From: a virus
Taxonomy: Duplodnaviria; Heunggongvirae; Uroviricota; Caudoviricetes
Virus record (IMG/VR): IMGVR_UViG_3300044673_000278
Span: 187,694-251,693 of that record
Direction: 5' to 3' (one strand)
Length of the DNA: 64,000 nucleotides
Part shown: positions 7,095-32,323 of the stretch, piece by piece
Position numbering within the stretch: the stretch's first letter is position 1
Layout of the letters: each line of letters starts with the position of its first letter
The notes under the pieces: generated by a model
What the model was told of the DNA's origin: nothing
Seen by the model: only the letters and a program-made list of their open reading frames with translations
The model's database searches: none
Program-made: the position numbers and the translations under genes

Positions 7095-7400
7095 ATGGAT
7101 ACTGATAATCTTGTTGCTCACGCACGAGCACGTTTTGATCATGCTGTTGCAAAACGCATACTCAAAGAAAAATACGAAGCCCGAATGCTGTTCGCTTATG
7201 CTGGCGGCATGTGGCGTGCTGGCCCAGAACTACAGACCACACTGCTGACCTGCCCAGGTACAGAAGCAGTGCTGTTGGATCTATACGAAAATCCTGTTCG
7301 AGTAGATACCAAAGAGTTATATGCTCAAAGTCAACAACGTTGGCAAGAACAGATGAACGCTTGGTTGGTAGAACACGAAGCAAACAATCGAAAACGATGA
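7095..7400 (+). CDS. Hypothetical protein
   Basis: 101-aa ORF; its stop TGA overlaps the next start (ATGA at 7397-7400). Confidence 0.45.
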   Translation: MDTDNLVAHARARFDHAVAKRILKEKYEARMLFAYAGGMWRAGPELQTTLLTCPGTEAVLLDLYENPVRVDTKELYAQSQQRWQEQMNAWLVEHEANNRKR

Positions 7401-8200
7401 CCACTGGCGCACTGATATTTGCATTCAACAATGAAAAAACCGACTACCTTGCTATGGCTGGGTGGAGTGCTCAACGCATTCGTCGCCACCTCAACATTCC
7501 AGTTGCAGTTGTCACAGACTGCACAGACCATAAACGAACTCAGGGATTTGATCGAGTCATTTGCACAGCAGCTGAATCCGGAGGAACCCGTTGGTTCGAG
7601 GATTATGCGTCTACTGTGTCTTGGCACAACGCTGGTCGTGTAAATGCCTACAATCTGTCACCCTGGGACGAAACCCTGGTACTGGATGCTGACTATGTGG
7701 TGTGTAGCGATGTACTAAGTCGTGTATGGAATTACAATCGTGATTTTTTGTGCTTCAAAAATGCATGGAATGCTGCCACTGGAGACATGTTAGAAGGATT
7801 AAACACTTTTGGGCGTTTAAAAATGCCCATGTGGTGGGCCACAGTGATGTATTTCCGACGGTCAAACTCGGCACAGTATATTTTTGATAGTATGCAAATG
7901 GTGCGGGACAATTGGCAGCACTACAGGGACTTGTATCACATTGATCGTGCAACCTATCGCAATGACTTTGCACTCAGTATTTCTCTAGGCATTGTAAGTG
8001 GACACACTCTACAGGTTGACAACATTCCTTGGAACCTAGCATCTGTGTTGCCAGATACCAAGCTCTCACAGTTAGATGAAGATTATTTTTCAATTGAGTA
8101 TCAAGATCAAAATGGTGTGCCACGCACAGTGGGCATATCAGGCACAGACTTTCATGCCATGGGCAAAGCACACCTGGAGAACATAATTGCGGCCCGTTGA
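7397..8200 (+). CDS. Putative nucleotide-sugar glycosyltransferase-like protein (DxD motif)
   Basis: Start re-assigned to the ATG at 7397 that overlaps the upstream stop. The ORF-track start at 7211 lies in the preceding gene's frame overlap. The motif LVLDADYVV is DxD-like. Confidence 0.45.
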   Translation: MTTGALIFAFNNEKTDYLAMAGWSAQRIRRHLNIPVAVVTDCTDHKRTQGFDRVICTAAESGGTRWFEDYASTVSWHNAGRVNAYNLSPWDETLVLDADYVVCSDVLSRVWNYNRDFLCFKNAWNAATGDMLEGLNTFGRLKMPMWWATVMYFRRSNSAQYIFDSMQMVRDNWQHYRDLYHIDRATYRNDFALSISLGIVSGHTLQVDNIPWNLASVLPDTKLSQLDEDYFSIEYQDQNGVPRTVGISGTDFHAMGKAHLENIIAAR

Positions 8201-8954
8201 AGAACAAGGTTACATTATTCCTGCATGGAACATAGGCGGTCGGGACTATGTGGACTGTGCCCGGACCTTGGCCAAAACACTGCTGCAACACAATCCTGCT
8301 GCACGTATCTGCTTGTTGACCAATGTGCCTGATGCTGCTGAACCTTTTTTGTTTGCCTACACTCATGTAGTACAAAACATTGATACCCAAAACCCCTGGG
8401 CCAATGACTGGCTGGTAGCAAAGCAAACGCCGTTTAGGGAAACTATCAAACTAGAAGCAGACATGCTGATAGCCACGCCCATTGATCATTGGTGGAACTT
8501 GTTTAGACATCGTGATGTTGTGATTTCAACAGGCTGCAGAAATTGGCAAGGAGAAATCAGTTCAGCAAGACAGTATCGTCGTTGTTTTGATGAGAACTCA
8601 CTGCCTGACGTGTACAACGCCATTACCTATTGGCGCCGCAGCGAAACAGCACAGGAATTTTTTGATCTAGTGCGTGACATATTTGTGAATTGGTCAGACG
8701 TTCGTAAACTGTTGAAGTACGCCGAAGATGTACCCAGCACAGATCTTGTGTATGCTGTAGCGGCTCAAATCATGGGACCAGAACGTGTGACCATGCCCTA
8801 TGCCAGCTATCCACAAATAGTGCATATGAAGCGACATCATGCCGGTACTGAAACTGAAGACTGGATGAAAGAACTAACATTCGAAATGAATCCCATTCGC
8901 ATCAACACAGTGGCACAATGGGGTGCTGTACACTACAGGGCACAGAGAACATGA
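8187..8954 (+). CDS. Hypothetical protein, possibly glycosyltransferase-like
   Basis: 255-aa ORF translationally coupled to its neighbours (overlapping start and stop). Confidence 0.4.
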
Positions 8955-9274
8955 TTGAATATGAAATGAACTTTGCTGAACCCCGGCCTGTGTTCTACAG
9001 ACTGTATCACAATGAGCAAGGTGTTCCGTTATTCTACAGCATGGAAGACTTGCCAGGTACATACATCGAAATTGACGCGGCAACATTTGCAAGGTCGCCC
9101 TCACGTGTGCGTGTGCGTGACGGTCGGCTGGTAGAGCTAACTTGGAAAACCACTGCAAGACTAGAACAAACAGATGACCGTGGAACGCCTTGCCATCCCC
9201 AAGACGTTGCCATTGTAGTCAACACCAAACAACCACACCAATGCTGGAGCAAACAAACTTATGAACAAAATTGA
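8951..9274 (+). CDS. Hypothetical protein
   Basis: Start moved to the ATG at 8951 (ATGA overlap with the upstream stop). About 107 aa. Confidence 0.4.
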
Positions 9275-10184
9275 CATCGCAGATTTAGACTGCATTTACC
9301 TAACATATGATGAACCTCAACGTGAAGAATTTTGGGTTAAAATTAAGAACATGGTGCCTTGGGCCAAACGGGTGGACGGTGTTAAAGGCAGCGATGCGGC
9401 TCACAAAGCGGCGGCCGCATCGTCGGATACAGATCGATTTATTCTCATCGATGGCGACAACATCCCCAATCCAGATTTTTTTAATCAAACGCTTGTTCTT
9501 CCTAACGAAGAATATGAGAACGCTGTGTTCCGTTGGCGAGCACGTAATCACATCAATGGACTGATGTATGGAAATGGTGGTTTATCTAGTTGGACTAAGA
9601 AGTTTGTTAATGATATGCAAACTCATGAACATTCAGATGGACGAGCGGAAACACAAGTGGAATTCTGTTTTGATCCCCTTTATTGGGCCATGCACGATTG
9701 TTTTTCTACGACCTATCCCAACGGATCGCCTTTCCAAGCCTGGCGTGCAGGGTTTCGTGAGGGTGTTAAAATGTGTCTGCAACGTGGCCGCAAGCCCACC
9801 ATCGAAGAGTTTAAGAATCAAGTTCTAAGAAACTTGGACAACTTGACTATCTGGCACAACGTGGGGTCAGACGTAGAACACGGCGAGTGGGCCATGGCTG
9901 GCGCACGCCAAGGCACATACATGACCATGCTCACAAACTGGGATCACACACAGGTACAGAACTTTGATGCCCTGGCCGAATTGTGGGAATCTGTAAAAGA
10001 TTCCAACCCACGTATTTTGTCCAATCAACTGGGCCCAGAAATTGGAACACAGTTAGCATTGCCTATGGCCATACTGGAATCAGAGCAAAGTGCATTCTTC
10101 AAACATCACTATCGATCAAATTGGCACAACCAAGGTGTCATGGTCAGAGAAATAGATGTTATTCGCAAGCTAGAAGGATGGTAA
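9261..10184 (+). CDS. GT-A-like glycosyltransferase-family protein, homologous to the C-terminal domain of the 1004-aa repeat protein
   Basis: [10 protein letters not shown] is a DxD-like motif. The segment ...[17 protein letters not shown]... closely matches ...TPWQAWRTAFREAIKLC... in ORF 26660-29674. Confidence 0.5.
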
Positions 10185-11563
10185 TGAACAAAGGCGACCA
10201 GAGCAAGTTCATGAGTTCAGCTGAACAAATGAAGCAGGATCTGGGTCCTGCTCTTTGTCTTGCCAAGTGGAAACAGGTTAGCTTTCACTTGCCTACTGGA
10301 CTCAACAACAGTTGTTACCATCCTCCACTGCATCAAATATCAGTGGAAGATCTAAAGCGCACTGGCGGCCTGCACAACACCGACCACAAGAAACAGCAAC
10401 GTAAATTGATGTTGAGTGGCCAACGCCCTAGTGAATGCCAATACTGCTGGAACATGGAAGACCTTGGGCAACTGTCTGATCGACACTACAGGTCAGGCGA
10501 ACCCTGGGCTGCTGTGGACTTTGAAAAAATTCGTAATTCAACCGGAGACGAAGATGATGTCATTCCCAGCTATGTTGAGGTTAATTTTAATAACGCTTGT
10601 AACCTTAAGTGCAGTTATTGTAGTCCCCAGTTTAGCTCTAGCTGGGGAGACGAAGCTAATCGTTATGGCGCTTATCCTACTTCCGTACCACACAATTCTC
10701 CAGAACATTTTACTGGGGCTAGACGTGTTATACCCGCTAGGGAAAGCAATCCCTACGTTGAAGCGTTTTGGCAGTGGTGGCCTACACTGTACCCGCAGCT
10801 TAGACATTTCCGAATGACCGGTGGCGAGCCACTGATGGACCGGAACACTTACAGAGTGTTTGACTATGTGTTGGCTCTTCCCAAACCTGATTTGCATTTA
10901 AATGTAACATCGAACTTTTCTGTGGAACCTGCACTGTTTGAAAAGTATTTGGACTATGTAAAACGACTGTGCAACACTCAAATTGAGCACTTCATGCAAT
11001 ACGTAAGTCTAGACTCTGGTCGTGGATTTCAAGCTGAATACATACGCCACGGTATGGATTCACAGCGTGTGGTCGGCAACGTCAATCGCTATTTGCACGA
11101 AGTTCCATATCGCAACAGCCTAACGTTTATTATCACAATGAACAACTTGAGTGTAACAGGGTTCCGCGAATACATGGAATGGATCTTGCATCTACGTAAG
11201 AGCTACTCTAAGACGTATCAACGTGTATGGTTTGACACACCTGTGCTGCGACAACCAGCCTGGCAGAGTCTGCAGATCTTGCCCGAAAGTTATGCAGCAA
11301 AATTAGAACAGTGCGCAGATTGGATGGCCACACAGGTCACTGCGGACGGGCTGCACGGCTTCCGCGATTACGAAGTACAACGTCTGCGTAGAGACATTGC
11401 ATGGATGCGTGAAGGACAAAAACAAAACAACGATACGGCCAAAGCAGACTTCTATCGTTTCTTTTCTGAACACGACCGTCGTCGAGGCACAGACTTCTTG
11501 CGTACTTTTCCTGAAATGAAAGCCTGGTGGGCAGAATGTGAGTATCATGCTAGGGCAGCATAA
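10184..11563 (+). CDS. Radical SAM enzyme, paralog 1, with an N-terminal Cys-rich twitch/SPASM-like domain
   Basis: CNLKCSYCSP is a CxxxCxxC motif and GGEPL is the SAM-binding glycine motif. The N-terminus reads C..W....TG...SCYHPP...CQYCW. Start set to the ATG at 10184 (TAATG overlap, GAAGGA SD). The ORF-track start at 9983 is an out-of-context 5' extension. Confidence 0.7.
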   Translation: MNKGDQSKFMSSAEQMKQDLGPALCLAKWKQVSFHLPTGLNNSCYHPPLHQISVEDLKRTGGLHNTDHKKQQRKLMLSGQRPSECQYCWNMEDLGQLSDRHYRSGEPWAAVDFEKIRNSTGDEDDVIPSYVEVNFNNACNLKCSYCSPQFSSSWGDEANRYGAYPTSVPHNSPEHFTGARRVIPARESNPYVEAFWQWWPTLYPQLRHFRMTGGEPLMDRNTYRVFDYVLALPKPDLHLNVTSNFSVEPALFEKYLDYVKRLCNTQIEHFMQYVSLDSGRGFQAEYIRHGMDSQRVVGNVNRYLHEVPYRNSLTFIITMNNLSVTGFREYMEWILHLRKSYSKTYQRVWFDTPVLRQPAWQSLQILPESYAAKLEQCADWMATQVTADGLHGFRDYEVQRLRRDIAWMREGQKQNNDTAKADFYRFFSEHDRRRGTDFLRTFPEMKAWWAECEYHARAA

Positions 11564-12659
11564 AATTGTTTGTGACGAATGGGCAGAAGTTTGGGATCTA
11601 CTCAAGCCCTATGCCGATGAAAGCTTCTGGCGCTGGACAGACGTTGACTTTGATCCTACAAAGATCTATATTGTAGGACGTGTGGTTCTCAAAGACAATT
11701 GGCAAGCTATTACAGACTTAGCTACTAAACACCCAGGGCGTATTGTGTTTTCAAATCCTGCCGAAGGCAGTGAAACCATACTGTTGCAGCTAAAACGTCT
11801 ACGTATCACAGAGCATGTGCGTGATGGACGCATAGGACTATTAACTTCAGGCGACTTAGAGCCTGGCTGGCACTATTGCAAAACAGACTGCTATTTTTCC
11901 AACATTGTGGAATATGATGAAAACCGGGCAGCACAAATACAGGCTGCTATGGATTACCGGCATCATCGTCCCTATCAATTTTTGTTCTTGAACGGCCGTC
12001 TACGGCCACACCGCAAATATCTAATAGATACTTTGAGAGACCTTGGACTGTTAGATCACGCACTATGGACCAATTTAGGTAGTCGTGTGGAAATGGGATT
12101 TACCTCATCGTTGACTACATTTCCAGTGGAGCCCATACGATTGTTGCCACCTGAGTATGAAATTGAACGTGCTGTACCTAACTTAACCACTGTAGAACAA
12201 CAGGGATTTGTCAAACATCAATTGTTTAACAATACCTGGGGCGATGCCATTGTAAATCCACGTTGTTACACGGACTCGTGGTTCAGTCTGGTAACAGAAA
12301 CTATTTTTGATTATCCTCATACATTCCGCACAGAAAAAATTTGGAAGCCCATACTGATGGCGCACCCTTTTGTAGTTGCTGCCAATCAGGGATACCTGCG
12401 AGACTTGCAAAACGCAGGATTTAAAACGTTTGGTCATTTAATAGATGAAAGTTACGATCAAATTGATCGCGCCGAAGTGCGAATAAGTCGTATAATAGAC
12501 ACAATGACCTGGCTGTGCAAAGATTCCAATGCTGCTGAATTCTGGGAAGCCAGCCGTGATATTTGTAAATACAATCAACAACATCTTGTGGAATACAATC
12601 GTCAACAGCGAGCTGAATTGCCACAACAACTCTTGACATATCTCAATGAACGATCTTGA
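11538..12659 (+). CDS. GT-B-like protein, paralog 1 (C-terminal Rossmann-like motif)
   Basis: C-terminal motif KPILMAHPFVVAANQGYLRDLQNAGFKTFGHLIDESYD is shared with ORFs 16857-17849, 24357-25547 and 25531-26661. Confidence 0.5.
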   Translation: MSIMLGQHKIVCDEWAEVWDLLKPYADESFWRWTDVDFDPTKIYIVGRVVLKDNWQAITDLATKHPGRIVFSNPAEGSETILLQLKRLRITEHVRDGRIGLLTSGDLEPGWHYCKTDCYFSNIVEYDENRAAQIQAAMDYRHHRPYQFLFLNGRLRPHRKYLIDTLRDLGLLDHALWTNLGSRVEMGFTSSLTTFPVEPIRLLPPEYEIERAVPNLTTVEQQGFVKHQLFNNTWGDAIVNPRCYTDSWFSLVTETIFDYPHTFRTEKIWKPILMAHPFVVAANQGYLRDLQNAGFKTFGHLIDESYDQIDRAEVRISRIIDTMTWLCKDSNAAEFWEASRDICKYNQQHLVEYNRQQRAELPQQLLTYLNERS

Positions 12660-13971
12660 ATTTCGCCGGGAAGTCCTGGACAAGTTAAGCGATAGTTTCT
12701 GTGCTGCAAAGTGGTATAATGCTACCATTTGGCTTGGTAGCGGCATGAGCACCAGCTGCCACCACCCGCCAGCTCACTTGGTGGACAAAGATAAAGTCCG
12801 GGCCAACCCTAGGCTGCTGCACAATACTCCGCAGAAAAAAGACGACCGACGCAAAATGTTGGCTGGCGAGCGCCCTGCAGGTTGCGAATACTGTTGGAAA
12901 ATCGAAGACATGGGACGCAATGCTATTTCGGACCGTGTGTACAAATCACGAATCTATCCCATAGAGGCCTTGCATGAAGCTAGAGCTACACCCGCAGATC
13001 AAGACGTCAACCTCCGTACTTTGGAAATTGCTTTCGATCGTACTTGTCAGTTTGCTTGCAGCTATTGCAACCCAGCTTTCAGTACGACATGGGTTAATGA
13101 TATTCGGCGTAACGGACCCTATAATGGTTTGGTTAGTGACGGCCGCAATCACTTCACTCACACTCATGACAGTAGTCAGCTCTATAAAATTACTGAGAGC
13201 AACCCATACATTGATGCTTTTTTCTCTTGGTGGGAGTCGGACCTACACCATACACTTCAGGAACTCAGAATCACAGGTGGAGAGCCCCTCATGTCCGGCC
13301 ACACCTGGCGACTCATTGATTGGTTCCGGGATAATCGCGGCCGTAGCCAGACTCGCTTGGCAATCAACTCAAATCTTGGTCCGCAGGTAGATATATATCG
13401 ACTGCTGGACTCTACTGAAGGCATGGATGTAGAAATCTACACTAGTCAGGAAGCAGTGGGCAAACAGGCAGAGTATATTAGAGATGGCTTGGATTACCCA
13501 CTTTGGCGTCAAAACGTCATGGCTTTGCTAGACGCGGGTCGCACTGTGCATGTTATGTGTACTATAAATGCACTGTGCTTGACTACACTGCCGCGCTTGT
13601 TGAATGAACTGGTAGAATGGAAACGCACATACGGGCGTGACCGTGTTAATTTCACTTTGAATATCCTACGCTTCCCGTCATTTCAATCGCCTTTGGTTTT
13701 ACCTGATCATTTACGTGAACAATTCAAAGGTGATTTGACACAATGGTTGGTCGATCACCGTGGCTATAGTTACATGCAAGAACACGAAATTAATCACACG
13801 CAACGATTAATAGATTATTTGGATGTTGTTAAAACTCCGCATTCAGATGCATTTGAAATGCCCAAGCTGCACAACGACTTTCGCGAGTTTTATCGACAGT
13901 ACGATCAACGCCGCGGACGAGATTTTGCTGAGTATTTCCCCGAATTAAAAGAATGGTATCAATCATTATGA
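12646..13971 (+). CDS. Radical SAM enzyme, paralog 2
   Basis: CQFACSYCNP (CxxxCxxC) and GGEPL motifs. N-terminal CAAKWYNATIWLGSGMSTSCHHPP...CEYCW. Confidence 0.7.
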   Translation: MNDLEFRREVLDKLSDSFCAAKWYNATIWLGSGMSTSCHHPPAHLVDKDKVRANPRLLHNTPQKKDDRRKMLAGERPAGCEYCWKIEDMGRNAISDRVYKSRIYPIEALHEARATPADQDVNLRTLEIAFDRTCQFACSYCNPAFSTTWVNDIRRNGPYNGLVSDGRNHFTHTHDSSQLYKITESNPYIDAFFSWWESDLHHTLQELRITGGEPLMSGHTWRLIDWFRDNRGRSQTRLAINSNLGPQVDIYRLLDSTEGMDVEIYTSQEAVGKQAEYIRDGLDYPLWRQNVMALLDAGRTVHVMCTINALCLTTLPRLLNELVEWKRTYGRDRVNFTLNILRFPSFQSPLVLPDHLREQFKGDLTQWLVDHRGYSYMQEHEINHTQRLIDYLDVVKTPHSDAFEMPKLHNDFREFYRQYDQRRGRDFAEYFPELKEWYQSL

Positions 13972-23306: not shown

Positions 23307-23309
23307 AAC

Positions 23310-23336: not shown

Positions 23337-24385
23337 TATAGATAAGTTTCTAAACCTCCACGACGACGGATATCCTGTGTGCAACAAGATATACCGCCGT
23401 CCCAGAAGTAGCTGTGACGCAACTCACTTATAATCGGATTGATCCGATGCTGCTTACAGTAATCAAACACCTGCTTGTTGTAGGCGCTGAAGATTACATT
23501 CTCTTCGTCTAGCACAAGACAGTTTACATCAAACACTGTCTCAGCCACAAATCCTGTCCATTTGGTTAGATATGTGTTCACAAAGTCTGTGAACTCTGGG
23601 GTAGGAGTTTGACCTTGCACATACCATGCACCGGGGCTGGATTCATATTTGAACTTGCCCACTTCCATGGCAGCCCAGATTGAACTATCCCAAATCTTGC
23701 ACACATCCCAGCCCGGGAAATCCTTGGCCAAGTCCAAGTTAACATCGTGCTTGCTACTGAGCAGCACGCCGGGCTTGAGTATGGCAAACACAGCATCACC
23801 GTGGCCGTCTGTGACAGCTTCGTGTATGCGATATTCCGGACCCAGCACATTGTCTACAATCCAACGTGTCTGCTCGGGCTTTAGGAAATCCGAATTGTCA
23901 AAAAACACATCACGGCCCACACGCACAATGCAACTGGCGCTGGCACCATTTAGGATACAATCAGGATCCCATTGGCTGCGATGTGGATTGACCACTGTGG
24001 CACCTTGACCAGCATAGTCATTGCAAATAGTGTCTAGTTCGGGCATGTTGAGCACACGCAACAGTTTGTCACCCAGTGTAATTTGCCAGTCACGTGGAGT
24101 CAGTGGGGGCAACGGCGCACCGCCACCTTCGGTTTGAAACCATACAAATTGATCTTTGTTGGGCAAATCAGGTCTACGAACAGTGGCACCGTAGCGTTGA
24201 ATAGTCTTGGCCAAGTTGTCAAGGTCTTCTTCGGTTTCTGCTAGGATCTGTTGCAGTTGGTTACGCACCTGCGGATTGTCGATGAAATCAAAATAATCAG
24301 GTGAGTAGGCGCGGCCTACAATTACTTCTTCCAGTGGTTGCCACGATGTATAACTGTTAACGATATTGCTCATGTATTTTCTCAA
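23336..24385 (-). CDS. Pentein-fold amidinotransferase/DDAH-like enzyme
   Basis: C-terminal FWDGGISCCTQDIRRRG resembles the catalytic-Cys motif (GGGxHCxT) of the amidinotransferase/arginine-deiminase superfamily. TDGHGD is a candidate His/Asp site. Confidence 0.45.
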   Translation of the reverse strand: MRKYMSNIVNSYTSWQPLEEVIVGRAYSPDYFDFIDNPQVRNQLQQILAETEEDLDNLAKTIQRYGATVRRPDLPNKDQFVWFQTEGGGAPLPPLTPRDWQITLGDKLLRVLNMPELDTICNDYAGQGATVVNPHRSQWDPDCILNGASASCIVRVGRDVFFDNSDFLKPEQTRWIVDNVLGPEYRIHEAVTDGHGDAVFAILKPGVLLSSKHDVNLDLAKDFPGWDVCKIWDSSIWAAMEVGKFKYESSPGAWYVQGQTPTPEFTDFVNTYLTKWTGFVAETVFDVNCLVLDEENVIFSAYNKQVFDYCKQHRINPIISELRHSYFWDGGISCCTQDIRRRGGLETYL

Positions 24386-25547
24386 TCAAGCTATTTAAAC
24401 GTTGACTCTTGTTGGCCTGAAATAATTGCTGGTTGTGTTCAATATCTCCACGGGCCTGCTCAAACAGCTCAGGAAGATTTCTACTGGCAGCAACTATGCT
24501 TTCTTTGAGAGCTTGCCAACGTTGTGTATGATTTGTGATAGCATCATATCTGTTGTCCAACACATTATCAAATGTTCTGTAACCCAAATCTCTTAGTGCC
24601 TGCAAACTGCCAGTAGCCCCAGCCACAAAGAACAGTTGTCCGTGCTTGATGGCTTTGAATGTTTTTTCTGTGACAAAAGCGCCGCCGCTTTGATCTACAT
24701 CAAATTGACTTTCCAACACAATTTGACAGTAGCTGTCGTTGTAAAACTTGGGCTCCATCACTGAGTGATTGTTGCGATCGCTGTCAGACAGATCATCGCA
24801 ATAGTAAGGAGCGTTCTGCAAGAATCTTGATCTATCGTAACGCAGACGTTGGATCAAATCAACTTCAATAGGGCAATCATTGTCTTCCCCCGTGGCTGCT
24901 TCACAATAACTCCAGTAACTGTGATCTAACACACCAGTGCGCCATAAGTCAGCCATCACAGTGGCACGCCACCATTTGTGTAGTCTGCTGAGACAAGTAA
25001 ATTGTTTGCTTCTAGGCAGTTGATGCACTGGCATAGGCTCAACATCAATGTTTCTTTGATAATACCAAAGCTCAAAATCGTCAAAATGCACAAAGCCATT
25101 GAGCTTGGCAGCAGCGGTGTTGGCACTGACAAACACGTAACACTGCGGTGGCAGCTCATGATCCAACAACAATTTGTCAATTCTTTGTTTGATTCTACCA
25201 GGGTTGTCACCTTCGTGATAGTAGAACAACAAACGTAGACGCTGCTGTTTCACTGCACGAGTCACGTCCTTGGGCAACAAGGAAATATAATCAATTGAAA
25301 AATCAAAGAATCCCAAGCCAATGGGGTACAGTGAATCAGCAGGAAAATTGTCGTTGATATTGAATATGTTGACTGCTACTCCGTGCTGATTGCAGTATTC
25401 TTGTAACCTCAGCGGTACTGTATAAGGCCAATGCTGACCAAATTCTCTCCAGGGTTGAGTGTATGGCCTGGCCTCGTGCTTGGTCAGCGCAGGGTATATT
25501 CTGCCTTTGAGAACTTGATCTGCAATTAGATTAAGGCTCAATTTCAT
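24357..25547 (-). CDS. GT-B-like protein, paralog 3
   Basis: C-terminal TEKTFKAIKHGQLFFVAGATGSLQALRDLGYRTFDNVLDNRYD motif. Confidence 0.5.
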   Translation of the reverse strand: MKLSLNLIADQVLKGRIYPALTKHEARPYTQPWREFGQHWPYTVPLRLQEYCNQHGVAVNIFNINDNFPADSLYPIGLGFFDFSIDYISLLPKDVTRAVKQQRLRLLFYYHEGDNPGRIKQRIDKLLLDHELPPQCYVFVSANTAAAKLNGFVHFDDFELWYYQRNIDVEPMPVHQLPRSKQFTCLSRLHKWWRATVMADLWRTGVLDHSYWSYCEAATGEDNDCPIEVDLIQRLRYDRSRFLQNAPYYCDDLSDSDRNNHSVMEPKFYNDSYCQIVLESQFDVDQSGGAFVTEKTFKAIKHGQLFFVAGATGSLQALRDLGYRTFDNVLDNRYDAITNHTQRWQALKESIVAASRNLPELFEQARGDIEHNQQLFQANKSQRLNSLIEKIHEQYR

Positions 25548-26661
25548 TCAGCATCTCAATGAGTTCTTTCCACAGCACTTTTTCAAATCCGCCATTGTAA
25601 AAATGGTTCCAATTGTGCTCAATTACTTCGCGACACTGATCAAACAACTGTTGTTTGGCTTCTACACTCAGTTGATCTAGACTGCGCAACAAACTAGCAA
25701 TGCGTTCTATGCGAACATCGTCCTCGGCATCGTCGTAACTTTCGTCCCATATGCCCTCAAAGGTTCGAAACCCGTATTCTCTGAGATATTTCAAACTGCC
25801 CTTGGTCCCAACAATAATAAATGGCATGCCCATGGCAATAGGTTTGAAAGTTTTTTCTGTGAGGTGCAATCTTTTTCCTGTGGCCACAGTTTCTGTCACA
25901 AGATACAACAAACTTTCAGCAGCTTCGTCAAACAGACTCAACCAGCAACTGTGCATGGGATGATCAGTTTCGCCGGCAAAATTGATTGGTAATTGTTGAG
26001 ATCCGAATACTTGCTCAATATCAGGATACTTGTTTTTTAATAATTTTACAGCATCAATGATATTGATATTCTCTGCTGGGCACACATCGGGGCAACTGAT
26101 GTGGTTGTCTAGCATGTTGTTTTTAAAGATATGGTACAACATTTCTAATCTATGTTGACGTTCGCCAGCAATGATTCTGTTTGGAGCAAGAAAAGTTTTG
26201 GTAATAGTTCGTTCAGTCCACGGCTTTATCAAAAACGTTTTGTCGTACCCGCGATACCAATCTAACGCAGCCCAGCCGTGAAAGAAATAGTACAAAGATT
26301 TCCACTTGAACCTAGAACATACGTATTCAACACTGACACTGTTTTTCTCACTGGTCATAACATATCCAGCATTTTTTATACGATTGGTATCAAAATTTTC
26401 AATTCGGTTATCGGTGTGAGTGATATCTAAGTTTAACCCTGCAACTTGGCTAAACGTAGGAAGATGAATGTTCAAATGTATTGGCTCTTGATCAAAAAAG
26501 AATATATAATTGTGTTCAGGGATGTCGTCTCTACCGTAGTTCATAACACTTTCGGGATCACTTCTGCCAAAAGGCTCACAGAAAAATGCTCTGTACCCGG
26601 GCCTATTCTTTTTTAACCAAGGCCAAAATGTATTGTTGTAGAGTTCGTCGATTCTAATCAT
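25531..26661 (-). CDS. GT-B-like protein, paralog 4
   Basis: C-terminal TEKTFKPIAMGMPFIIVGTKGSLKYLREYGFRTFEGIWDESYD motif. Confidence 0.5.
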   Translation of the reverse strand: MIRIDELYNNTFWPWLKKNRPGYRAFFCEPFGRSDPESVMNYGRDDIPEHNYIFFFDQEPIHLNIHLPTFSQVAGLNLDITHTDNRIENFDTNRIKNAGYVMTSEKNSVSVEYVCSRFKWKSLYYFFHGWAALDWYRGYDKTFLIKPWTERTITKTFLAPNRIIAGERQHRLEMLYHIFKNNMLDNHISCPDVCPAENINIIDAVKLLKNKYPDIEQVFGSQQLPINFAGETDHPMHSCWLSLFDEAAESLLYLVTETVATGKRLHLTEKTFKPIAMGMPFIIVGTKGSLKYLREYGFRTFEGIWDESYDDAEDDVRIERIASLLRSLDQLSVEAKQQLFDQCREVIEHNWNHFYNGGFEKVLWKELIEMLNEIEP

Positions 26662-29600
26662 GTTTGATGTTTTTTATATAGGAACTAAACCAAATCTATT
26701 GCCGCATGAACAATCTGCGGATAGCATTGAACATGCTCAAAGTTTGTGTCGTACAAGATTTTGTTGGATTGTATCGTACTTAGCGGATCTCGACGGTTGG
26801 GATTTTCTTTGGGAACCTGTGCCTTGGCAAGCCAATTTTGTTCATGTTTGGCCCAGCGAAGTAGAAGGATATGCTGCGGTACAACTAGTACCAAAAAACG
26901 TTGTCACTTTGGAGTATCACTATCACAACACAGTGGTGCCATCCAAGTCAAGACCAGAAAACTATTGCACACTGGTTGACTCAGAGTTTGACTATAATTG
27001 GTTGCCAAGCCCGTGGGATCCTCCTTACATTTATGTGTTTGGTAATCAGCATTGGCCTGCAGAAGTGCAGCCCACAGTGGAATATCATGTGCCTGGTGCT
27101 ACAGAACGCAAATACATGGAGTGGCCTGTGGCACAGTTAAAGCCGTGTCGTAACAACTGGCTATTGAACGAAAACATCGATGAAGAATCTTGGGATTGGT
27201 CTTGGCGGCCAGACCCAGGAGATCCACCTTACATCTATGTGTTTGGCAATCAATGGAACCCTCCTGAATACAAAACCAGTGTGGAATATCATGTGCCTGG
27301 TGCTACAGAACGCAAATACATGGGCGCTCGCACACAGCGTTTGCCCAACTATGGCAACAATTGGCGTGTGCTGCTCAGCGTCGAAGAGTTTGATTATAGC
27401 TGGGAACCAAATCCATTTGATCCTCCTTATATCTATGTGTTTGGCAATCAGTGGTATTCAGCAGAAGTTGAACCCACAGTGGAATACCACGTACCGGGTG
27501 CCACAGAACGCAAGTATGTTCATGATATTGCGGCCCGAGTTCAAGCCAACTCATTGAACTACTATCAACACTGTGCTGTGGAGTCGTTTGATTACTCATG
27601 GCATCCTGATCCCGGTGAGCCACCTTACATCTATGTGTTTGGAAATCAGTGGTATCCAGCAGAGATCATGCCCACAGTGGAATATCGTGTGCCAGGCGCC
27701 ACTGAGCGGAAGTACATGGATGCTCCGCGGGCAACATTGCCCCAGCGACACGACAATCGTTGGCATACCTTAGAAGATTGCGAGTGGGATTACAGTTGGG
27801 TACCCGATCCGGGAGATCCTCCTTACATCTATGTGTTTGGCAATCAGTGGTGGCCAGCAGAAAAATGGCCCACTGTAACATATACAGTGCCCGGTGCCAC
27901 AGAGCGCAAATACATGCAAGAGCCTGTGGCCAAGCTGTTGTCTAACACACAAAATTGGATCAGTTTGACAGATCGTCAGTTTGCATTTGACTACTCGTGG
28001 CAACCTGATCCTGGCGATTCACCTTACCGTTATGTGTTTGGTAACCAATGGCATAGTGCTGAAGTCATGCCCACAGTACAATGGCTACATCCAAATGCTG
28101 ACAAGAACACACCTATAAAATACATAGACTGGCCACGTGCAGAGTTACTGCCTGACTCAACCCTCTGGACACTGCCAGCAGGTGTAAATCCTGCCAGTGT
28201 AGACTTCTCCTGGGTACCAGATCCTGGCGAACCTCCCTACATATATCAATTTGCCACACAGCACCAGAAAACTGGTGGACCTGTGTACACAGTGCCCGGC
28301 GCCACTGAGATCAAATACCTTGAACACGTAGAGGTAAAAGTCGAAGCCGAAACTGTGCCCATTGTGGAAATTGATCACTTGGACGGCAATGCTGGACAGA
28401 TAGCCAATGTTGTCAAACGTGTGCGTTATTTTGACAACTACAGAGACACACTGATTCGCATTGCCAAGAGCCTTGTGGGTCAGCATGAGTTTGTGTGGGT
28501 ATGTTCCAGCATCTGTGATTACACAGGTTTTGACTTTACCTGGCATCCTGAGAAATGGCAAAACACCATGCTGCATGTATTTGCCAGCAATGATCAAAAG
28601 TTCGGCGACACATTCTACATGCATGTGCCTACCTTTGCTGAACGTGCTGAGAAGAAAGCACTGTTGGAATGGTATGCTGTGAATTATGTGCCGCGCAAGT
28701 CAGTGCCTCGCAGACCCATGCCAGTGATTGAACACACTGCTGATTCACATGTGGATGCTGTGAAGAACACAGACTGGGCAGGACCCGTGGCATTGTTCTC
28801 TACCAACGGTGTTCCTTTTACCTTGCCCACTGTCCCTCTTTGGCGTGAAGAAGTCAAAACAATTGTGCCACTCAGTGCTGGTGCCAGTGCAGTGATTGTG
28901 CCCAAGGTGGCCAAGGGCAGTGTCAAAACACAGTTGTACGACTATCCTTACATAGACAAAACACAAAGCAAGCGACACGGCGATCAACCGCTGGACATTG
29001 TGTTTATCAGTAACGGAGAAGCCAGTGCTGACAAAAACTATCGTCGACTAGAAGACAGCAAGTACAATCGCAACAATCGTCTAATGAGAGTTGACCGTGT
29101 AAATGGTCGTGCAGCAGCTTATCATGCCGCTGCTCGGGTCAGCACCACACCATGGTTCTTTGCTGTGTTTGCTAAGTTAGATGTTCGTATGGATTTTCCC
29201 TGGGATTGGCAACCTGATCGCATGCAACAGCCCAAGCACTATATCTTTCATGCGTTCAACCCTGTCACTGGATTGGAATATGGGCACCAAGCCATGATTG
29301 CCTACAACCGAGATCTAGTGTTGAACAACCCAGGCGTGGGCCTTGACTTTACGCTAGACAGCGCACACGAAGTTGTACCCATCAACTCAGGTACAGCATG
29401 GTACACAGACACACCGTGGCAAGCTTGGCGCACAGCGTTTAGAGAAGCAATCAAATTATGTGCCAGCATGCCCGATGTTGAAAGCGAATACAGACTCAAC
29501 GCCTGGCTCAACAACGGCGACGGATGGAATGGTGATTGGAGTCGACATGGTGCTGCTGATGGCGTTGAATACTATCAGCAGGTCAATGGAGATTTTGCAG

Positions 29601-29674
29601 AATTGAGGAAAAGCTACGAGTGGGACTGGCTGGCCAGTTATGCATTTATAAAAAGAGGGCTAACCAATGACTAA
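26660..29674 (+). CDS. 1004-aa protein with ~8 tandem ~75-aa repeats and a C-terminal GT-A-like domain
   Basis: Repeat unit: DYxWxPDPGDPPYIYVFGNQWxxAExxPTVEYHVPGATERKYM. C-terminal ~300 aa homologous to ORF 9261-10184 (QAWRTAFREAIKLC). Confidence 0.65.
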   Translation: MFDVFYIGTKPNLLPHEQSADSIEHAQSLCRTRFCWIVSYLADLDGWDFLWEPVPWQANFVHVWPSEVEGYAAVQLVPKNVVTLEYHYHNTVVPSKSRPENYCTLVDSEFDYNWLPSPWDPPYIYVFGNQHWPAEVQPTVEYHVPGATERKYMEWPVAQLKPCRNNWLLNENIDEESWDWSWRPDPGDPPYIYVFGNQWNPPEYKTSVEYHVPGATERKYMGARTQRLPNYGNNWRVLLSVEEFDYSWEPNPFDPPYIYVFGNQWYSAEVEPTVEYHVPGATERKYVHDIAARVQANSLNYYQHCAVESFDYSWHPDPGEPPYIYVFGNQWYPAEIMPTVEYRVPGATERKYMDAPRATLPQRHDNRWHTLEDCEWDYSWVPDPGDPPYIYVFGNQWWPAEKWPTVTYTVPGATERKYMQEPVAKLLSNTQNWISLTDRQFAFDYSWQPDPGDSPYRYVFGNQWHSAEVMPTVQWLHPNADKNTPIKYIDWPRAELLPDSTLWTLPAGVNPASVDFSWVPDPGEPPYIYQFATQHQKTGGPVYTVPGATEIKYLEHVEVKVEAETVPIVEIDHLDGNAGQIANVVKRVRYFDNYRDTLIRIAKSLVGQHEFVWVCSSICDYTGFDFTWHPEKWQNTMLHVFASNDQKFGDTFYMHVPTFAERAEKKALLEWYAVNYVPRKSVPRRPMPVIEHTADSHVDAVKNTDWAGPVALFSTNGVPFTLPTVPLWREEVKTIVPLSAGASAVIVPKVAKGSVKTQLYDYPYIDKTQSKRHGDQPLDIVFISNGEASADKNYRRLEDSKYNRNNRLMRVDRVNGRAAAYHAAARVSTTPWFFAVFAKLDVRMDFPWDWQPDRMQQPKHYIFHAFNPVTGLEYGHQAMIAYNRDLVLNNPGVGLDFTLDSAHEVVPINSGTAWYTDTPWQAWRTAFREAIKLCASMPDVESEYRLNAWLNNGDGWNGDWSRHGAADGVEYYQQVNGDFAELRKSYEWDWLASYAFIKRGLTND

Positions 29675-30332
29675 GCATTTTTCGGAATCAGAATTTATTT
29701 TAAATTTTGGTGACAGTTGGGCACATGGCGGCGATGTTGAACGAGATCAACGATATTGTTATTTGTTGTCGTGTAGTTTGAGAAAACAGTTAAAAGACTA
29801 CAGTGTATCTAGTAGTAGTGCTGGCAACATGATTTTACAGTTGCAGGAATTTTTAAACAACGATTACGATCCTAATCATAGTTACACTGCTTTGTTTTTT
29901 GTAACTGCACAGGAAAGACAGTTGTTGTTTGACAAACAAGGTCGTCCGGTTGATTTATCACCGCAATCAGATAGCGAATACTATCTAAAGTACTACAACA
30001 ATCGACTGGGCAATTTTTCTCTCAACAACACCTTGATTACTTTGCAAGCAATGTGCCGCAGATACAAAATCAATGATTACTATTTGTTGGGCTGGCAGTT
30101 GCCCACACTGTGGCACGAAGTAGACGTTACCAAATTTTATGATCATGCACAGAGTAATGCGTTAAACATGATGGCCGGTCCAGACGCACCCAGCTTGATC
30201 GATTTAATGACGCAGGGCCATCGTTGTTTGGTGTCGCCTACCAATGGGCATCCTAGCAAAGAGGGGCATAGGATGATCTATGAGCACTGGCTCAAGTGGA
30301 TACAGCAACCGCGGCCAGAACTTGATCGCTGA
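29667..30332 (+). CDS. SGNH/GDSL-family hydrolase-like protein
   Basis: N-terminal ILNFGDSWAHGG is a GDSx block I motif. Confidence 0.45.
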   Translation: MTKHFSESEFILNFGDSWAHGGDVERDQRYCYLLSCSLRKQLKDYSVSSSSAGNMILQLQEFLNNDYDPNHSYTALFFVTAQERQLLFDKQGRPVDLSPQSDSEYYLKYYNNRLGNFSLNNTLITLQAMCRRYKINDYYLLGWQLPTLWHEVDVTKFYDHAQSNALNMMAGPDAPSLIDLMTQGHRCLVSPTNGHPSKEGHRMIYEHWLKWIQQPRPELDR

Positions 30333-31407
30333 TGTATTCAACTTCAAGGTCTGTGAGTTCAGGGTACAGTGGCAAACTGAGAACTCTACGTGCTAGACTG
30401 GAACTCACAGCCAACATGTCGGGACCCGGCCACTGACGGTATACATCAATCTCGTGTATGGGACGCTCGTAATGCACACGAGTTTCAATCTTGCGATCTG
30501 CTAGCTTTTGTTTGACAGTATCACGACGGTCAATGTCAATCACAAACTTGTGATGTGCATGATTATGTGCGTTGCCTTCGTCGATCAAACAGCGTATCTT
30601 TGATCTATTGTCAAAACGTTCGCGCCAGTAATCTGATATTTTTGCACGCCGCGCCTGCCATTGATCAATGTATTGAGTTTTGACTAACATGGTAGCACAA
30701 TCTATTTCGCTCATGCGACTGTTGGTACCTGCATAGCCGTGCGTGGGTTTGCCGTTGTCTCTCCACGCCCTGGCAAATTCTGCAAGATCCAAACTGTCTG
30801 TGACCACAGCACCACCGTTGCCATAACAGCTTAGATTTTTCATGGGATCAAAACTGATAGCAGCAGCATCGCCTATGCGTTGGCAGTCATTGGACAACCA
30901 GTGTTGTGCAGCATCTTCGATCACAATGGTATTGGTAGCAACCCAGTGGTTCCAGGATCGCACATGTGCAGAATGTGTGATTGATTTGCCGTAAAGCCCT
31001 ACCAGCACCACAGCATCGTATTCTACCAACTGCGGAAACTTAGTATCGTCCATGATGCCATATGCATCGGTGTCAATAAAGTGAAGATCCCAGCCAGCAC
31101 GGATAAAAGCATTGGCAGTGGCCACGTAGGTAAAACTGGGCATGAACACTCTGGGGTGTTTGGCCAACTGTGTTGCCCAATACTCTGCAATGATTTCCAA
31201 GGCCTGTGTGCCCGAGTGGCAGGTCACAGCATACTTCACACGGTTCCGTTTGGCAAGCCAGTGCTCAAACTCCACAGTGTTGTTGCCGTTCATGAGAGCA
31301 CCTGAACGCAACACTTCATCGGTTGCGTTCAGTACTTGATCTCTCAGTGTGTTATACTGTTTTCGGAGACCAGTAAACGGAATTGTCAAGCCAGTCATAG
31401 TAGGCAC
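30292..31407 (-). CDS. DegT/DnrJ/EryC1/StrS-family PLP-dependent sugar aminotransferase
   Basis: Family-typical N-terminus. FDPMKNLSCYGNGGAV contains the PLP-binding Lys. 371 aa. Confidence 0.7.
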   Translation of the reverse strand: MPTMTGLTIPFTGLRKQYNTLRDQVLNATDEVLRSGALMNGNNTVEFEHWLAKRNRVKYAVTCHSGTQALEIIAEYWATQLAKHPRVFMPSFTYVATANAFIRAGWDLHFIDTDAYGIMDDTKFPQLVEYDAVVLVGLYGKSITHSAHVRSWNHWVATNTIVIEDAAQHWLSNDCQRIGDAAAISFDPMKNLSCYGNGGAVVTDSLDLAEFARAWRDNGKPTHGYAGTNSRMSEIDCATMLVKTQYIDQWQARRAKISDYWRERFDNRSKIRCLIDEGNAHNHAHHKFVIDIDRRDTVKQKLADRKIETRVHYERPIHEIDVYRQWPGPDMLAVSSSLARRVLSLPLYPELTDLEVEYISDQVLAAVAVST

Positions 31408-32323
31408 GGAAACCTTCTTTCACATCAACTTTGGGATCGTAACCAAGAATGGTACGAGCACGATCAATATTTAAGGCTCCGCGGCTGGGGAAGTCTTGAT
31501 CTCGATCTTGCACTTCAATGGTACCTTTGCCCACCATCTCTACAATCATTTCAGCAGCTTCCAGCAAGCTTACACTGTGAGATTTAGTGATGTTGTAGGT
31601 ATTGTTACGTGCCATAATCCGCGTAGCCGCAGCCACAATACCATCAGCTGCATCATCAACATACGTGAAGTCCAAAGTTTCTCCCGCTCCGTTGACTCGT
31701 AGCACACCACCACGCATTGCAGTGAGCATAAATTTTGCAACAACACGATCCTCCACATCCAAAGGACCGTATACCGCTGACGGGCGGATAATAACGTATT
31801 CCATACCAGTTCTGCGAGCATAGTCTTTGACAAGCCATTCTCCTGACAGTTTCATGATACCGTACTGTCCTTGCGGATTGCACGTATCATCTTCCAGCAC
31901 TTGATCTTCAAAGTCACCGTAGACCATAGAGCTAGAAATGTACACAAAGCGTTCTACTTTGTGTTTTTTGGCACTCTCGAGAAGATTGATCAATCCACGC
32001 ATCATGACTTCTGCGCCCCAACTGGGGTTGGCATTGACTACTTTTTGTCTAGGAAAACTAGCACAGTGAATGATCACTTCGGGCTTTTCTTTTTCTACAA
32101 TGGTGTCAATTTCGTACCCATCAGTAATGCACTGCTGATAATGAGTGTGAGGTTGCAGCTTCTTAAGACGCTCTGCCATAAGGTAATCGATCTCGCCTTG
32201 TGGGATAATACCATAGGTGGTGTGCGTGTCAATCACTGCCACAGTTTCGTCACGGCCTTGTAGTCGAGCCACAACATTGTGACCAATCAATCCGTGTCCG
32301 CCTGTTACTAAAAATTTACTCAT
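31352..32323 (-). CDS. NAD-dependent NDP-sugar epimerase/4,6-dehydratase (extended SDR)
   Basis: VTGGHGLIGHNV Rossmann motif, YISSSMVYG and YGIMK (YxxxK). Confidence 0.7.
   Translation of the reverse strand: MSKFLVTGGHGLIGHNVVARLQGRDETVAVIDTHTTYGIIPQGEIDYLMAERLKKLQPHTHYQQCITDGYEIDTIVEKEKPEVIIHCASFPRQKVVNANPSWGAEVMMRGLINLLESAKKHKVERFVYISSSMVYGDFEDQVLEDDTCNPQGQYGIMKLSGEWLVKDYARRTGMEYVIIRPSAVYGPLDVEDRVVAKFMLTAMRGGVLRVNGAGETLDFTYVDDAADGIVAAATRIMARNNTYNITKSHSVSLLEAAEMIVEMVGKGTIEVQDRDQDFPSRGALNIDRARTILGYDPKVDVKEGFRAYYDWLDNSVYWSPKTV

Follow-up and report, generated by a model that had tools for sequence, protein, structure and literature searches.

A conserved module of radical SAM, sugar-tailoring and glycosyltransferase-like genes in an uncultured jumbo-phage clade and its possible role in assembling a decorated glycan

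Background

Chloroviruses, mimiviruses and mycobacteriophages are known to encode cytoplasmic machinery that glycosylates their structural proteins. The corresponding gene clusters of Mimivirus/Megavirinae, chloroviruses and mycobacteriophages act independently of the host, vary in gene content between clades, and combine a short-chain dehydrogenase/reductase (SDR) with a DegT-type aminotransferase and several glycosyltransferases. These characteristics are shared by the subject of this study, a block of open reading frames (ORFs) at positions 7397 to 32323 of a 64,000-nucleotide stretch of a Caudoviricetes genome (IMG/VR record IMGVR_UViG_3300044673_000278, positions 187,694 to 251,693; the whole stretch is hereafter termed the window). 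To our knowledge, no virion glycosylation cluster of Mimivirus, chloroviruses or mycobacteriophages carries arrays of N-twitch radical S-adenosylmethionine (SAM) enzymes, an amidinotransferase or a carbamoyltransferase, all of which are encoded in this block. The block also differs from these clusters in that its GT-B and GT-A-like glycosyltransferase (GT) families lie outside Pfam, and it is known here from its genes alone.

Host-recognition clusters of pelagimyophages and cyanomyophages resemble the block in their position beside tail-fibre genes, their content of GT8-type glycosyltransferases, lipopolysaccharide (LPS)-type sugar genes and radical SAM enzymes, and their aquatic origin (PMC7029224). 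The glycosyltransferases and radical SAM cassettes beside pelagimyophage tail fibres have been read, untested, as a means of modifying the host O-chain (PMC7029224). These clusters are hypervariable and show little synteny (PMC7029224), whereas the core of the present module is strongly conserved and syntenic and sits in a different lineage, that of a jumbo phage. The tailoring of aminoglycosides and bleomycin (BtrN/BtrS, StrB1, TobZ, BlmG/BlmD) employs the same superfamilies as the module for conversion of an alcohol to a ketone, an amine and a guanidine, and for O-carbamoylation of sugars; in the bleomycin disaccharide, a homolog of GDP-mannose 3,5-epimerase (GME) is likewise paired with a carbamoyltransferase. 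Unlike these pathways, the module lies in a lytic phage genome and has no cyclitol synthase, nonribosomal peptide synthetase or polyketide synthase, and its radical SAM enzymes belong to family NF033640, with the auxiliary-cluster domain at the N-terminus.

Cyanophage S-SCSM2R carries a DegT enzyme, a radical SAM enzyme and an amidinotransferase, which were labelled 'antibiotic synthesis genes' of unknown role, and its virion proteome included a second amidinotransferase (PMC12801897). This report and the pelagimyophage paper were the only relevant ones found by literature searches on the radical SAM family, on jumbo phages with carbamoyltransferases, and on jumbo phages with radical SAM enzymes and glycosyltransferases. 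The initial annotation of the window described the block as a glycan and sugar-nucleotide tailoring island of about 22 contiguous genes between tail-fibre genes and thyX, which was not recognised as a described pathway. In this study, the gene content, conservation and relatives of the block were analysed, and the possible functions of the encoded enzymes were weighed against each other.

Materials and methods

ORFs were obtained from a mechanical listing and translation of the window. Those of the block were numbered g1 to g22; up4 and up5 lie 5' of g1, and g23 lies 3' of g22. The curated cut-off of NF033640 (170 bits) was applied to the whole-protein score. The presence of a gene in related phages was expressed as the percentage of loci spanning the given position. 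Family NF033640 was surveyed in a collection with one genome per species, which was scanned with three of the five paralogs and yielded 80 loci. Among the GT-B-like proteins, g18 was modelled, with model input sequences taken from a protein search. The Helicobacter pylori FucT query sequence was validated against 2nzw at 730 bits.

Results

Conservation and synteny of the module

The block comprised 22 contiguous ORFs, in agreement with the initial annotation, and extended from the ATG of g1 (7397) to the start of g22 on the minus strand (32323). The genes g1 to g15 were on the plus strand (7397-23306), g16 to g18 on the minus strand (23336-26661), g19 and g20 on the plus strand (26660-30332), and g21 and g22 on the minus strand (30292-32323). 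Two scans of IMG/VR identified 144 loci on contigs of up to ~350 kb, and the core module was syntenic in more than 130 contigs. The common gene order was up4, up5, g1, g2, g3, g4, g5, (g6), g7, g8, g9, (g10), g13, g14 and g15, followed by g16, g17, g18, g19, g21, g22, g23 and thyX. The genes g1, g2, g4 and g5 were present in all spanning loci; g7, g8, g9, g13, g14, g15, g21 and g22 in 93-98%; and g16, g17 and g18 in 78-84%. Lower values were obtained for g6 (70%) and g10 (29%), and g11 and g12 (6% each) and g20 (1%) were rare accessories. The highest median identity was that of g16 (86%); g4 (75%) was likewise highly conserved and roughly equalled g8 and g9.

In relatives, the ORFs found as inserts in the module were clustered into 105 families, and a Pfam census of these was made. 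The inserts included FkbM/RfbT-like methyltransferases (22 loci), class-I methyltransferases, hexapeptide acyltransferases, GFO/IDH/MocA oxidoreductases, UDP-Glc/GDP-Man dehydrogenase, a PfkB kinase, an APS-kinase-like protein, AMP-binding enzymes, and additional DegT and radical SAM enzymes, a repertoire of sugar tailoring. Across a large uncultured phage clade, the module forms a conserved core in common gene order, into which variable sugar-tailoring genes are inserted. The tailoring genes are clustered as the term island implies; the sporadic acquisition that it also implies is contradicted by the synteny shared across the clade, and the GME homolog and the GDS-motif proteins are rare accessories. 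The GC content was even over the window (mostly 0.43-0.48), and the block did not differ from the remainder.

Metagenomic homologs numbered at least 5655 for the GT-B family and at least 8000 for g4, every one labelled hypothetical, and many members of the GT-B family in BFVD were from 'uncultured Caudovirales phage'. A megablast of the whole block against 50,697 phage records returned no match, so there was no annotated near relative among them. With no matching literature or annotated cassette found, the view that the block is not a described pathway was upheld.

Five paralogous radical SAM enzymes

Five radical SAM enzymes (g5, g7, g8, g9 and g13) had been proposed, and all of them exceeded the NF033640 cut-off (Table 1) and matched each other in pairwise BLASTP (E 1e-8 to 3e-64). 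The CX3CX2C motif (C123, C127, C130) and the N-terminal C9, C28, C74 and C77 were invariant across the five, and Pfam SPASM was located on the N-terminal side of the Radical_SAM core in g8, g9 and g13. The paralogs thereby combined the cluster motif with the N-terminal auxiliary-cluster (SPASM/twitch-like) domain of NF033640. The N-terminal extension of g8 (window 13953-14462) had no family match, and was kept in some orthologs (565 aa) and missing in others (419-445 aa).

Sugar-tailoring enzymes

Most of the remaining enzyme assignments were confirmed by profile searches. The plant-type GME homolog g12 matched plant GDP-mannose 3,5-epimerase over residues 3-318 with 305 bits, and carried the SSACIYP, YGWEK and GGREKAPAA motifs of this enzyme, which presumably hold the catalytic Cys/Lys and the Tyr-x3-Lys residues. 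The predicted O-carbamoyltransferase g15 contained Carbam_trans_N (123.4 bits, Pfam cut-off 24) and Carbam_trans_C (159.7 bits, cut-off 27), and scored 128 bits against the NodU equivalog, below its cut-off of 1000 bits. The ortholog profile of g16, proposed as a pentein-fold amidinotransferase-like enzyme, matched AGAT (E 3.6e-26), HsvA (2.7e-21), SxtG (4.8e-20) and StrB1 (2.2e-18) in three segments spanning the protein. His191, Asp193 and Cys330 of g16 were invariant among orthologs; Cys330 aligned with AGAT Cys407 and His191 with His303, and the position of AGAT Asp254 was Ser or Ala, in a segment where the alignment is uncertain.

The initial annotation had paired a DegT aminotransferase with a 4,6-dehydratase/epimerase as the classic route to 4-amino-4,6-dideoxy sugars. 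The DegT assignment of g21 was above the Pfam gathering score; its best NCBIfam match was PseC (148 bits, below cut-off), and the PseC, WecE, DesI and ArnB equivalogs were all missed. By its profile matches, g22 belongs to the SDR epimerase/dehydratase family. A role of g22 as an RmlB-type dTDP-glucose 4,6-dehydratase was rejected: it reads SSSMVYGD where these enzymes carry TDEVYG, so that the Asp-Glu acid/base pair is absent, it scored 130 bits against TIGR01181 (cut-off 365), and its best PDB matches were the 4-epimerases 6zl6 and 4zrm. As g22 lacks the dehydratase residues, the classic route was rejected with it.

The two proteins described as GDSL hydrolases, g11 and g20, could not be placed in the SGNH/GDSL superfamily, with no Pfam, NCBIfam or PHROG match and no detectable relationship to each other. 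Of the SGNH blocks I, II, III and V, no more than a GDS block and a C-terminal D/H-containing block could be seen.

Glycosyltransferase-like proteins and g19

The four GT-B-like proteins g6, g10, g17 and g18, here called the TEK family, were paralogs by BLASTP (E 1e-7 to 4e-15) with a near-invariant E...TEK...K/R motif, and gave no match in Pfam, NCBIfam, PHROG or PDB-sequence profile searches. The AlphaFold2 model of g18 (predicted local distance difference test score 85.8) had a GT-B glycosyltransferase fold with the two Rossmann domains of this architecture. These results support the view that the four are GT-B-fold glycosyltransferase-like paralogs outside Pfam. One family member in BFVD was fused to a UDP-glucose/GDP-mannose dehydrogenase domain.

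The C-terminal E-x(n)-TEK of the family corresponds to the FENS...YVTEK of GT10 alpha1,3-fucosyltransferases (H. pylori FucT, 2nzw/5zoi), which holds the reported GDP-fucose-binding residues Glu249 and Lys250; its position in the H. pylori sequence was checked. Membership of CAZy GT10 was rejected: none of 39 TEK-family members matched PF00852 at E<=1, the hhalign probability against H. pylori FucT was 0.6%, and the local alignment was no better than shuffled controls (z ~0). The likeness to GT10 is limited to the fold and the TEK motif. The nearest solved folds of these compact enzymes were the T4 DNA alpha- and beta-glucosyltransferases (AGT and BGT), with which they share 8% sequence identity; the E...TEK...R motif resembles that of GDP-sugar fucosyltransferases, not that of AGT or BGT.

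Three proteins had been described as DxD glycosyltransferase-like, and DxD-type motifs were found in all of them, with the family not backed by profiles. The paralogs g1 and g2 (E 5e-6) shared an invariant L(D/E)AD and a conserved C-terminal His...K. Neither had a Pfam, NCBIfam or PDB profile match; g2 matched the uncharacterised family phrog_1903 (E 3.5e-11), and an NleB-like match around the DxD in the PDB profile search was not significant (E 0.77). The predicted structure of g4 matched a GT-A-like fold; as the model is of low confidence, this match is suggestive, and g4 probably has a GT-A / nucleotide-diphospho-sugar transferase fold. PDB profile searches with the TEK family, g4, g14 and the g19 core returned nothing, and hhalign detected no remote homology between g14 and the TEK family or between g1/g2 and g4.

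The 1004-aa repeat protein g19 contained six clear and about two degenerate copies of a ~66-aa repeat (fDySWxPdPgDPPYIYvFGNQW...PGATE.KY), and its C-terminus was a DxD-less paralog of g4. Its orthologs spanned from 532 aa with 0 repeats to 2047 aa with 14 or more, and the repeat-free ones resembled three degenerate g4-like modules. Pfam, NCBIfam and PHROG searches were empty for g1, g3, g4, g6, g10, g11, g14, g17, g18, g19, g20 and g23, and PDB profile searches with g14 added no match. Overall, most motif calls held in profile or fold searches, and the 4,6-dehydratase, DxD and GDSL calls failed or stayed at the motif level. Enzyme families of nucleotide-sugar and glycan tailoring make up the bulk of the block, as initially annotated. 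The clustering and paralogy of the block genes are far beyond chance.

Absence of membrane and export functions

No transmembrane-like segment was detected in any protein of the block (maximum 19-residue Kyte-Doolittle hydropathy <1.4), and Pfam/NCBIfam scans of the block revealed no Wzx, Wzy, WaaL, initiating phosphoglycosyl transferase or exporter family. Without membrane segments, flippase, polymerase, ligase or initiating transferase, the block is not a self-contained lipid-linked polysaccharide cassette. A host-derived O-antigen or capsule cassette was rejected on the lack of membrane and export machinery and on the conservation of the module in phages; an annotated cassette of this type with a known product was looked for, and no match was found.

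Genomic context

The features of the block and its borders are listed in Table 1. The ATG of g1 overlaps the stop codon of up5. The 5' flank encodes a 1143-aa protein that matches PHROGs of tail fibre, baseplate and virion structure, a 597-aa fibre-like protein (23% Ser+Thr) and a 321-aa protein (29% Ser+Thr); on the 3' side, g23 is followed by thyX (32676-33368; Pfam Thy1, E 1.8e-41). The head-to-head genes g18 and g19 have overlapping start codons (26660-26661); with nothing between the two genes, both promoters must sit within coding sequence. The 3' ends of g20 and g21 overlap by 41 bp (30292-30332).

Beyond thyX, window 35656-46203 encodes an SPFH/Band7 protein, a TctC-like solute-binding protein, an RnlA-like RNA ligase, and a pair formed by a VWA-domain DUF2201 metallopeptidase and a MoxR-type ATPase. 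By this ATPase alone, the nearest cultured phages were PA5oct (51% identity), Phosso and Atu_ph07. ARAGORN identified 33 tRNA genes for most amino acids on the minus strand (window 53644-63067), an array typical of jumbo phages and therefore independent evidence for the phage type. The tail-fibre-like and virion-structural flanks, thyX, RnlA, the tRNA array and the relatives on IMG/VR contigs of up to ~350 kb support that the block is phage-encoded.

Table 1 Coordinates of the module genes and bordering features in the window
Feature	Position	Strand	Remarks
Terminator-like GC-rich 8-bp hairpin + T-run	7043-7062	+	After tail-fibre-like up4; marks new transcription unit up5-g15
up5, 101-aa conserved small protein	7095-7400	+	Always 5' of g1; in 95% of spanning loci; no Pfam match
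g1, GT8-like at motif level	7397-8200	+	LDAD, FHAMGK; paralog of g2; in 100% of spanning loci
g2, paralog of g1	8187-8954	+	LEAD, VHY..K; phrog_1903
g3, 118-aa conserved small protein	8918-9274	+	In 84% of spanning loci; no family match
g4, highly conserved, DGD motif	9261-10184	+	Probable GT-A / nucleotide-diphospho-sugar transferase fold
g5, N-twitch radical SAM, subgroup A	10184-11563	+	NF033640 310 bits; start codon uncertain (10178-10184)
g6, GT-B-fold TEK-motif paralog	11538-12659	+	Paralogy, motif
g7, N-twitch radical SAM, subgroup A	12646-13971	+	NF033640 288 bits
g8, N-twitch radical SAM, ~170-aa N-terminal extension	13953-15650	+	NF033640 390 bits; Pfam SPASM residues 176-241
g9, N-twitch radical SAM	15647-16864	+	NF033640 347 bits
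g10, GT-B-fold TEK-motif paralog	16845-17849	+	Paralogy, motif; variable
g11, accessory, GDS + D..H motifs, possible SGNH hydrolase	17846-18448	+	Motif only
g12, GDP-mannose 3,5-epimerase homolog, accessory	18445-19410	+	E 5e-90 to 8sg0, 2c59
g13, N-twitch radical SAM	19385-20695	+	NF033640 272 bits
g14, conserved 348-aa protein	20682-21728	+	In 98% of spanning loci
g15, NodU/CmcH/TobZ-type carbamoyltransferase	21828-23306	+	Both Pfam carbamoyltransferase domains
Bidirectional terminator-like GC-rich 8-bp hairpin + T-run	23311-23330	.	Between convergent g15 / g16
g16, amidinotransferase, pentein fold, AGAT/StrB1 family	23336-24373	-	Profile; most conserved gene
g17, GT-B-fold TEK-motif paralog	24357-25547	-	Paralogy, motif
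g18, GT-B-fold TEK-motif glycosyltransferase-like	25531-26661	-	Modelled member
g19, degenerate g4-like modules without DxD + variable ~66-aa repeat array	26660-29674	+	1004 aa
g20, accessory, GDSW motif	29667-30332	+	Motif only; in 1/67 spanning loci
g21, DegT/DnrJ/EryC1-family pyridoxal phosphate-dependent sugar aminotransferase	30292-31407	-	Pfam 209 bits
g22, extended SDR, NDP-sugar epimerase/oxidoreductase-like	31352-32323	-	Not canonical 4,6-dehydratase
g23, 111-aa conserved small protein	32320-32655	-	Between g22 and thyX

Relatives in bacteria and other phages

Tandem arrays of up to 7-8 NF033640 genes were found in Bdellovibrionales, Bacteriovoracaceae, Chitinophagales, Myxococcales and other metagenome-assembled genomes (MAGs). 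With phage-like contigs counted in, 13 of the 80 loci combined the NF033640 genes with a carbamoyltransferase, and g16-like amidinotransferases, g4-like proteins, DegT and GME were occasional partners of the bacterial arrays. Six to eight paralogs stood in tandem at three chromosomal loci from Bdellovibrionales, Bacteriovoracaceae and Gammaproteobacteria MAGs. The arrays elsewhere (3-8 tandem paralogs in Bdellovibrionales, Chitinophagales and Myxococcales MAGs and in Vibrio phages) belong to the same family and frequently include a carbamoyltransferase; unlike the present module, they lack the TEK-family GT-B, g14 and g19. The bacterial arrays represent an uncharacterised pathway in their own right.

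The module was also found, in phage gene order, on four contigs filed as MAGs (NZ_JBBAKG010000003/1, PBLX01000002 and NZDU01000006). These contigs, assigned to Haliscomenobacter (two contigs), Legionellales and Pacearchaeota, are probably mis-binned phage DNA; those of Haliscomenobacter could instead be a weak hint of the host.

NF033640-like genes occurred in Vibrio phages K566, K567, VS1 and VS2 and in Ralstonia phage RsoM2USA. The cultured Vibrio phage K566 (255 kb) carries four such genes interleaved with hypothetical proteins (record 160041-171009). The radical SAM neighbours in the four Vibrio phages are unrelated to the present module, and hhalign detected no remote homology between four K566 neighbour proteins and the TEK family. 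In the marine viral single-amplified genome AG-345-D19 (MH319727 and MH319720), a radical SAM enzyme, a carbamoyltransferase (49% identity to g15) and an amidinotransferase are consecutive, and a carbamoyltransferase-like gene adjoins thyX on a second contig. A sub-module of radical SAM enzyme, carbamoyltransferase, amidinotransferase and/or DegT therefore recurs in unrelated contexts, namely AG-345-D19, S-SCSM2R, and Bdellovibrionia and other MAGs.

Discussion

We give about an even chance to the explanation that the block encodes soluble phage enzymes that tailor nucleotide sugars and assemble a heavily decorated glycan during infection, with the virion as the likeliest acceptor. Nucleoside diphosphate (NDP)-sugars of the host would first undergo epimerisation, catalysed by the SDR g22 and, in the phage studied here, also by g12, whose product may be GDP-L-galactose or GDP-L-gulose. 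Particular sugar hydroxyls could then be oxidised to ketones. The SDR may do this, and so may the radical SAM paralogs, as radical dehydrogenases of the BtrN kind, epimerases or dehydratases. The role of the radical SAM enzymes is proposed by analogy with BtrN, which in the butirosin pathway provides a DegT-type aminotransferase with its ketone. The ketone would be transaminated by g21, the resulting amine may be turned into a guanidine by the arginine-dependent amidinotransferase g16, and g15 would carbamoylate hydroxyl or amino groups. Sugar transfer is assigned, tentatively, to the four fucosyltransferase-like GT-B proteins and the GT-A-like g1, g2 and g4, and g19, a DxD-less paralog of g4 with variable repeats, might have no catalytic part and instead act as a scaffold or bind the acceptor. 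That radical SAM and GT-B genes are interleaved, and that a true 4,6-dehydratase is lacking, agrees with this scheme without proving it. Family memberships, paralogy, conservation, and the absence of membrane segments and of undecaprenyl phosphate export and initiation machinery were observed; the order of substrates, the reactions of the radical SAM enzymes, the part played by g19 and the nature of the acceptor are inferred.

A virion protein (fibre or capsid) is the acceptor that we consider likeliest, with somewhat less than an even chance. The module stands directly 3' of Ser/Thr-rich (23-29%) tail-fibre-like genes in conserved synteny, which, together with the chlorovirus, mimivirus and mycobacteriophage precedent and an accessory-gene turnover that hints at an exposed structure, is suggestive of such an acceptor by analogy. 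The amidinotransferase detected in the virion proteome of S-SCSM2R (PMC12801897) also speaks for it. The particle would then bear a variable, cationic glycan coat.

Several observations weigh against this explanation. The hairpin at 7043-7062 splits the transcription units and thereby weakens the argument from fibre-gene adjacency. The nearest solved relatives of the radical SAM enzymes are viperin and MoaA, which act on nucleotides but are matched weakly (E 2e-6 or weaker, mostly over the cluster motif), and SPASM/twitch enzymes are mostly peptide maturases. Few recognisable glycosyltransferases neighbour the bacterial radical SAM arrays, and no sugar-activating nucleotidyltransferase was found in the block. 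The GT-A call depends on the low-confidence model for g4 and on motifs for g1 and g2, and g14, g3, g23 and up5 are left unexplained.

A first alternative is remodelling of the host surface, in which the phage enzymes would act, at the cytoplasmic face, on lipid-linked LPS or capsule intermediates and depend on the initiating transferase, flippase and ligase of the host, and the altered surface could, for example, block superinfection. O-antigen glycosyltransferases are mostly peripheral and without transmembrane helices, so that the lack of such segments is compatible with this alternative, and the accessory-gene turnover is similar to the diversification of O-antigen loci. The hypervariable regions beside the tail fibres of pelagimyophages and cyanomyophages, with glycosyltransferases, LPS-type genes and radical SAM cassettes, offer a parallel (PMC7029224), but host remodelling by pelagimyophages is itself still a proposal. 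An initiating transferase, Wzx, Wzy, WaaL and export components are all missing from the block, and its core is strongly conserved over phages that must infect different hosts, which would be unexpected of enzymes plugging into host-specific intermediates. We therefore consider host-surface remodelling unlikely.

The T4 enzymes whose folds are nearest to the TEK family raise the question of DNA as the acceptor. T-even phages glucosylate or arabinosylate 5-hydroxymethylcytosine, and the compact GT-B enzymes might similarly place a sugar that had been aminated, amidinated or carbamoylated, with a contribution from the radical SAM enzymes, on a modified base of the phage DNA, shielding the genome from host nucleases and perhaps neutralising charge in a very large capsid. 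The module adjoins thyX and, in some relatives, ThyA, DHFR and dCMP deaminase, the carbamoyltransferase-like gene of AG-345-D19 lies beside thyX, and the proteins are all soluble and cytoplasmic by hydropathy. However, Pfam/PHROG scans of the larger window ORFs (not all ORFs) revealed no base hydroxymethylase, 5-hydroxymethyldeoxyuridine kinase or aGPT-Pplase-type enzyme. The presence of thyX implies ordinary dTMP synthesis, and the arrangement in AG-345-D19 may be a genome architecture shared by descent. This makes DNA hypermodification distinctly improbable.

The parallel with antibiotic tailoring suggests a soluble small molecule, such as an aminoglycoside-like guanidino- or carbamoyl-sugar or an amidinated polyamine, that has no macromolecular acceptor and either targets the host or competitors or takes part in DNA condensation. 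The set of twitch radical SAM enzymes, DegT-type aminotransferase, amidinotransferase and carbamoyltransferase follows the logic of butirosin (BtrN/BtrS), streptomycin (StrB1), tobramycin (TobZ) and bleomycin-sugar (GME homolog + BlmD) biosynthesis. The HsvA matched by the g16 profile is a polyamine amidinotransferase, the bacterial radical SAM arrays are without polysaccharide export genes, and the label given to the S-SCSM2R genes was applied to the same trio (PMC12801897). Such a product is difficult to square with seven or more glycosyltransferase-like proteins and a large pseudo-glycosyltransferase scaffold, and neither a cyclitol synthase nor an export pump or a resistance gene was detected; a small molecule is accordingly very improbable.

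Least probable is maturation of a protein or peptide, in which the five radical SAM enzymes would act as maturases in the style of ribosomally synthesised and post-translationally modified peptides (RiPPs), possibly on the 66-aa repeats of g19 (conserved, with copy number 0 to at least 14), before glycosyltransferases decorate the product: weak NCBIfam matches of the paralogs to StsB, PapB, YhhB and AlbA, the predominance of peptide maturases among twitch/SPASM enzymes and the Asp/Asn beta-hydroxylases near bacterial arrays point in this direction, but many g19 orthologs are repeat-free in phages that retain all radical SAM genes, no RiPP recognition element or leader-peptide-type element was found, and the repeats look like duplicated pieces of a g4-like domain, not like core peptides.

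Every catalytic superfamily in the block is already known, as is virus-encoded glycosylation machinery. What appears to be undescribed in the searched literature is a set that joins five N-twitch radical SAM enzymes to an amidinotransferase, a carbamoyltransferase and seven or more glycosyltransferase-like proteins, together with the families outside Pfam, the pseudo-glycosyltransferase repeat protein, and the strict conservation in an abundant jumbo-phage clade. At least four families outside Pfam (TEK GT-B, g4/g19, g1/g2 and g14) are candidate new carbohydrate-active enzymes, and Vibrio phage K566 could be a tractable experimental model for NF033640.

Conclusions

If the decorated-glycan explanation is true, a very abundant uncultured lineage of aquatic jumbo phages makes its own elaborate amino/guanidino/carbamoyl glycan, which would extend phage glycosylation well past simple glucosylation. 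It would also provide the first functional context for the NF033640 family, whose members stand in arrays of up to 8 paralogs in the genomes of predatory bacteria and of several phages. If DNA were the acceptor instead, the module would represent a cationic glyco-hypermodification of an undescribed kind that is widespread in aquatic jumbo phages. The nature of the acceptor, whether virion, DNA or host surface, bears on the evasion of host defence or on host recognition by these phages.

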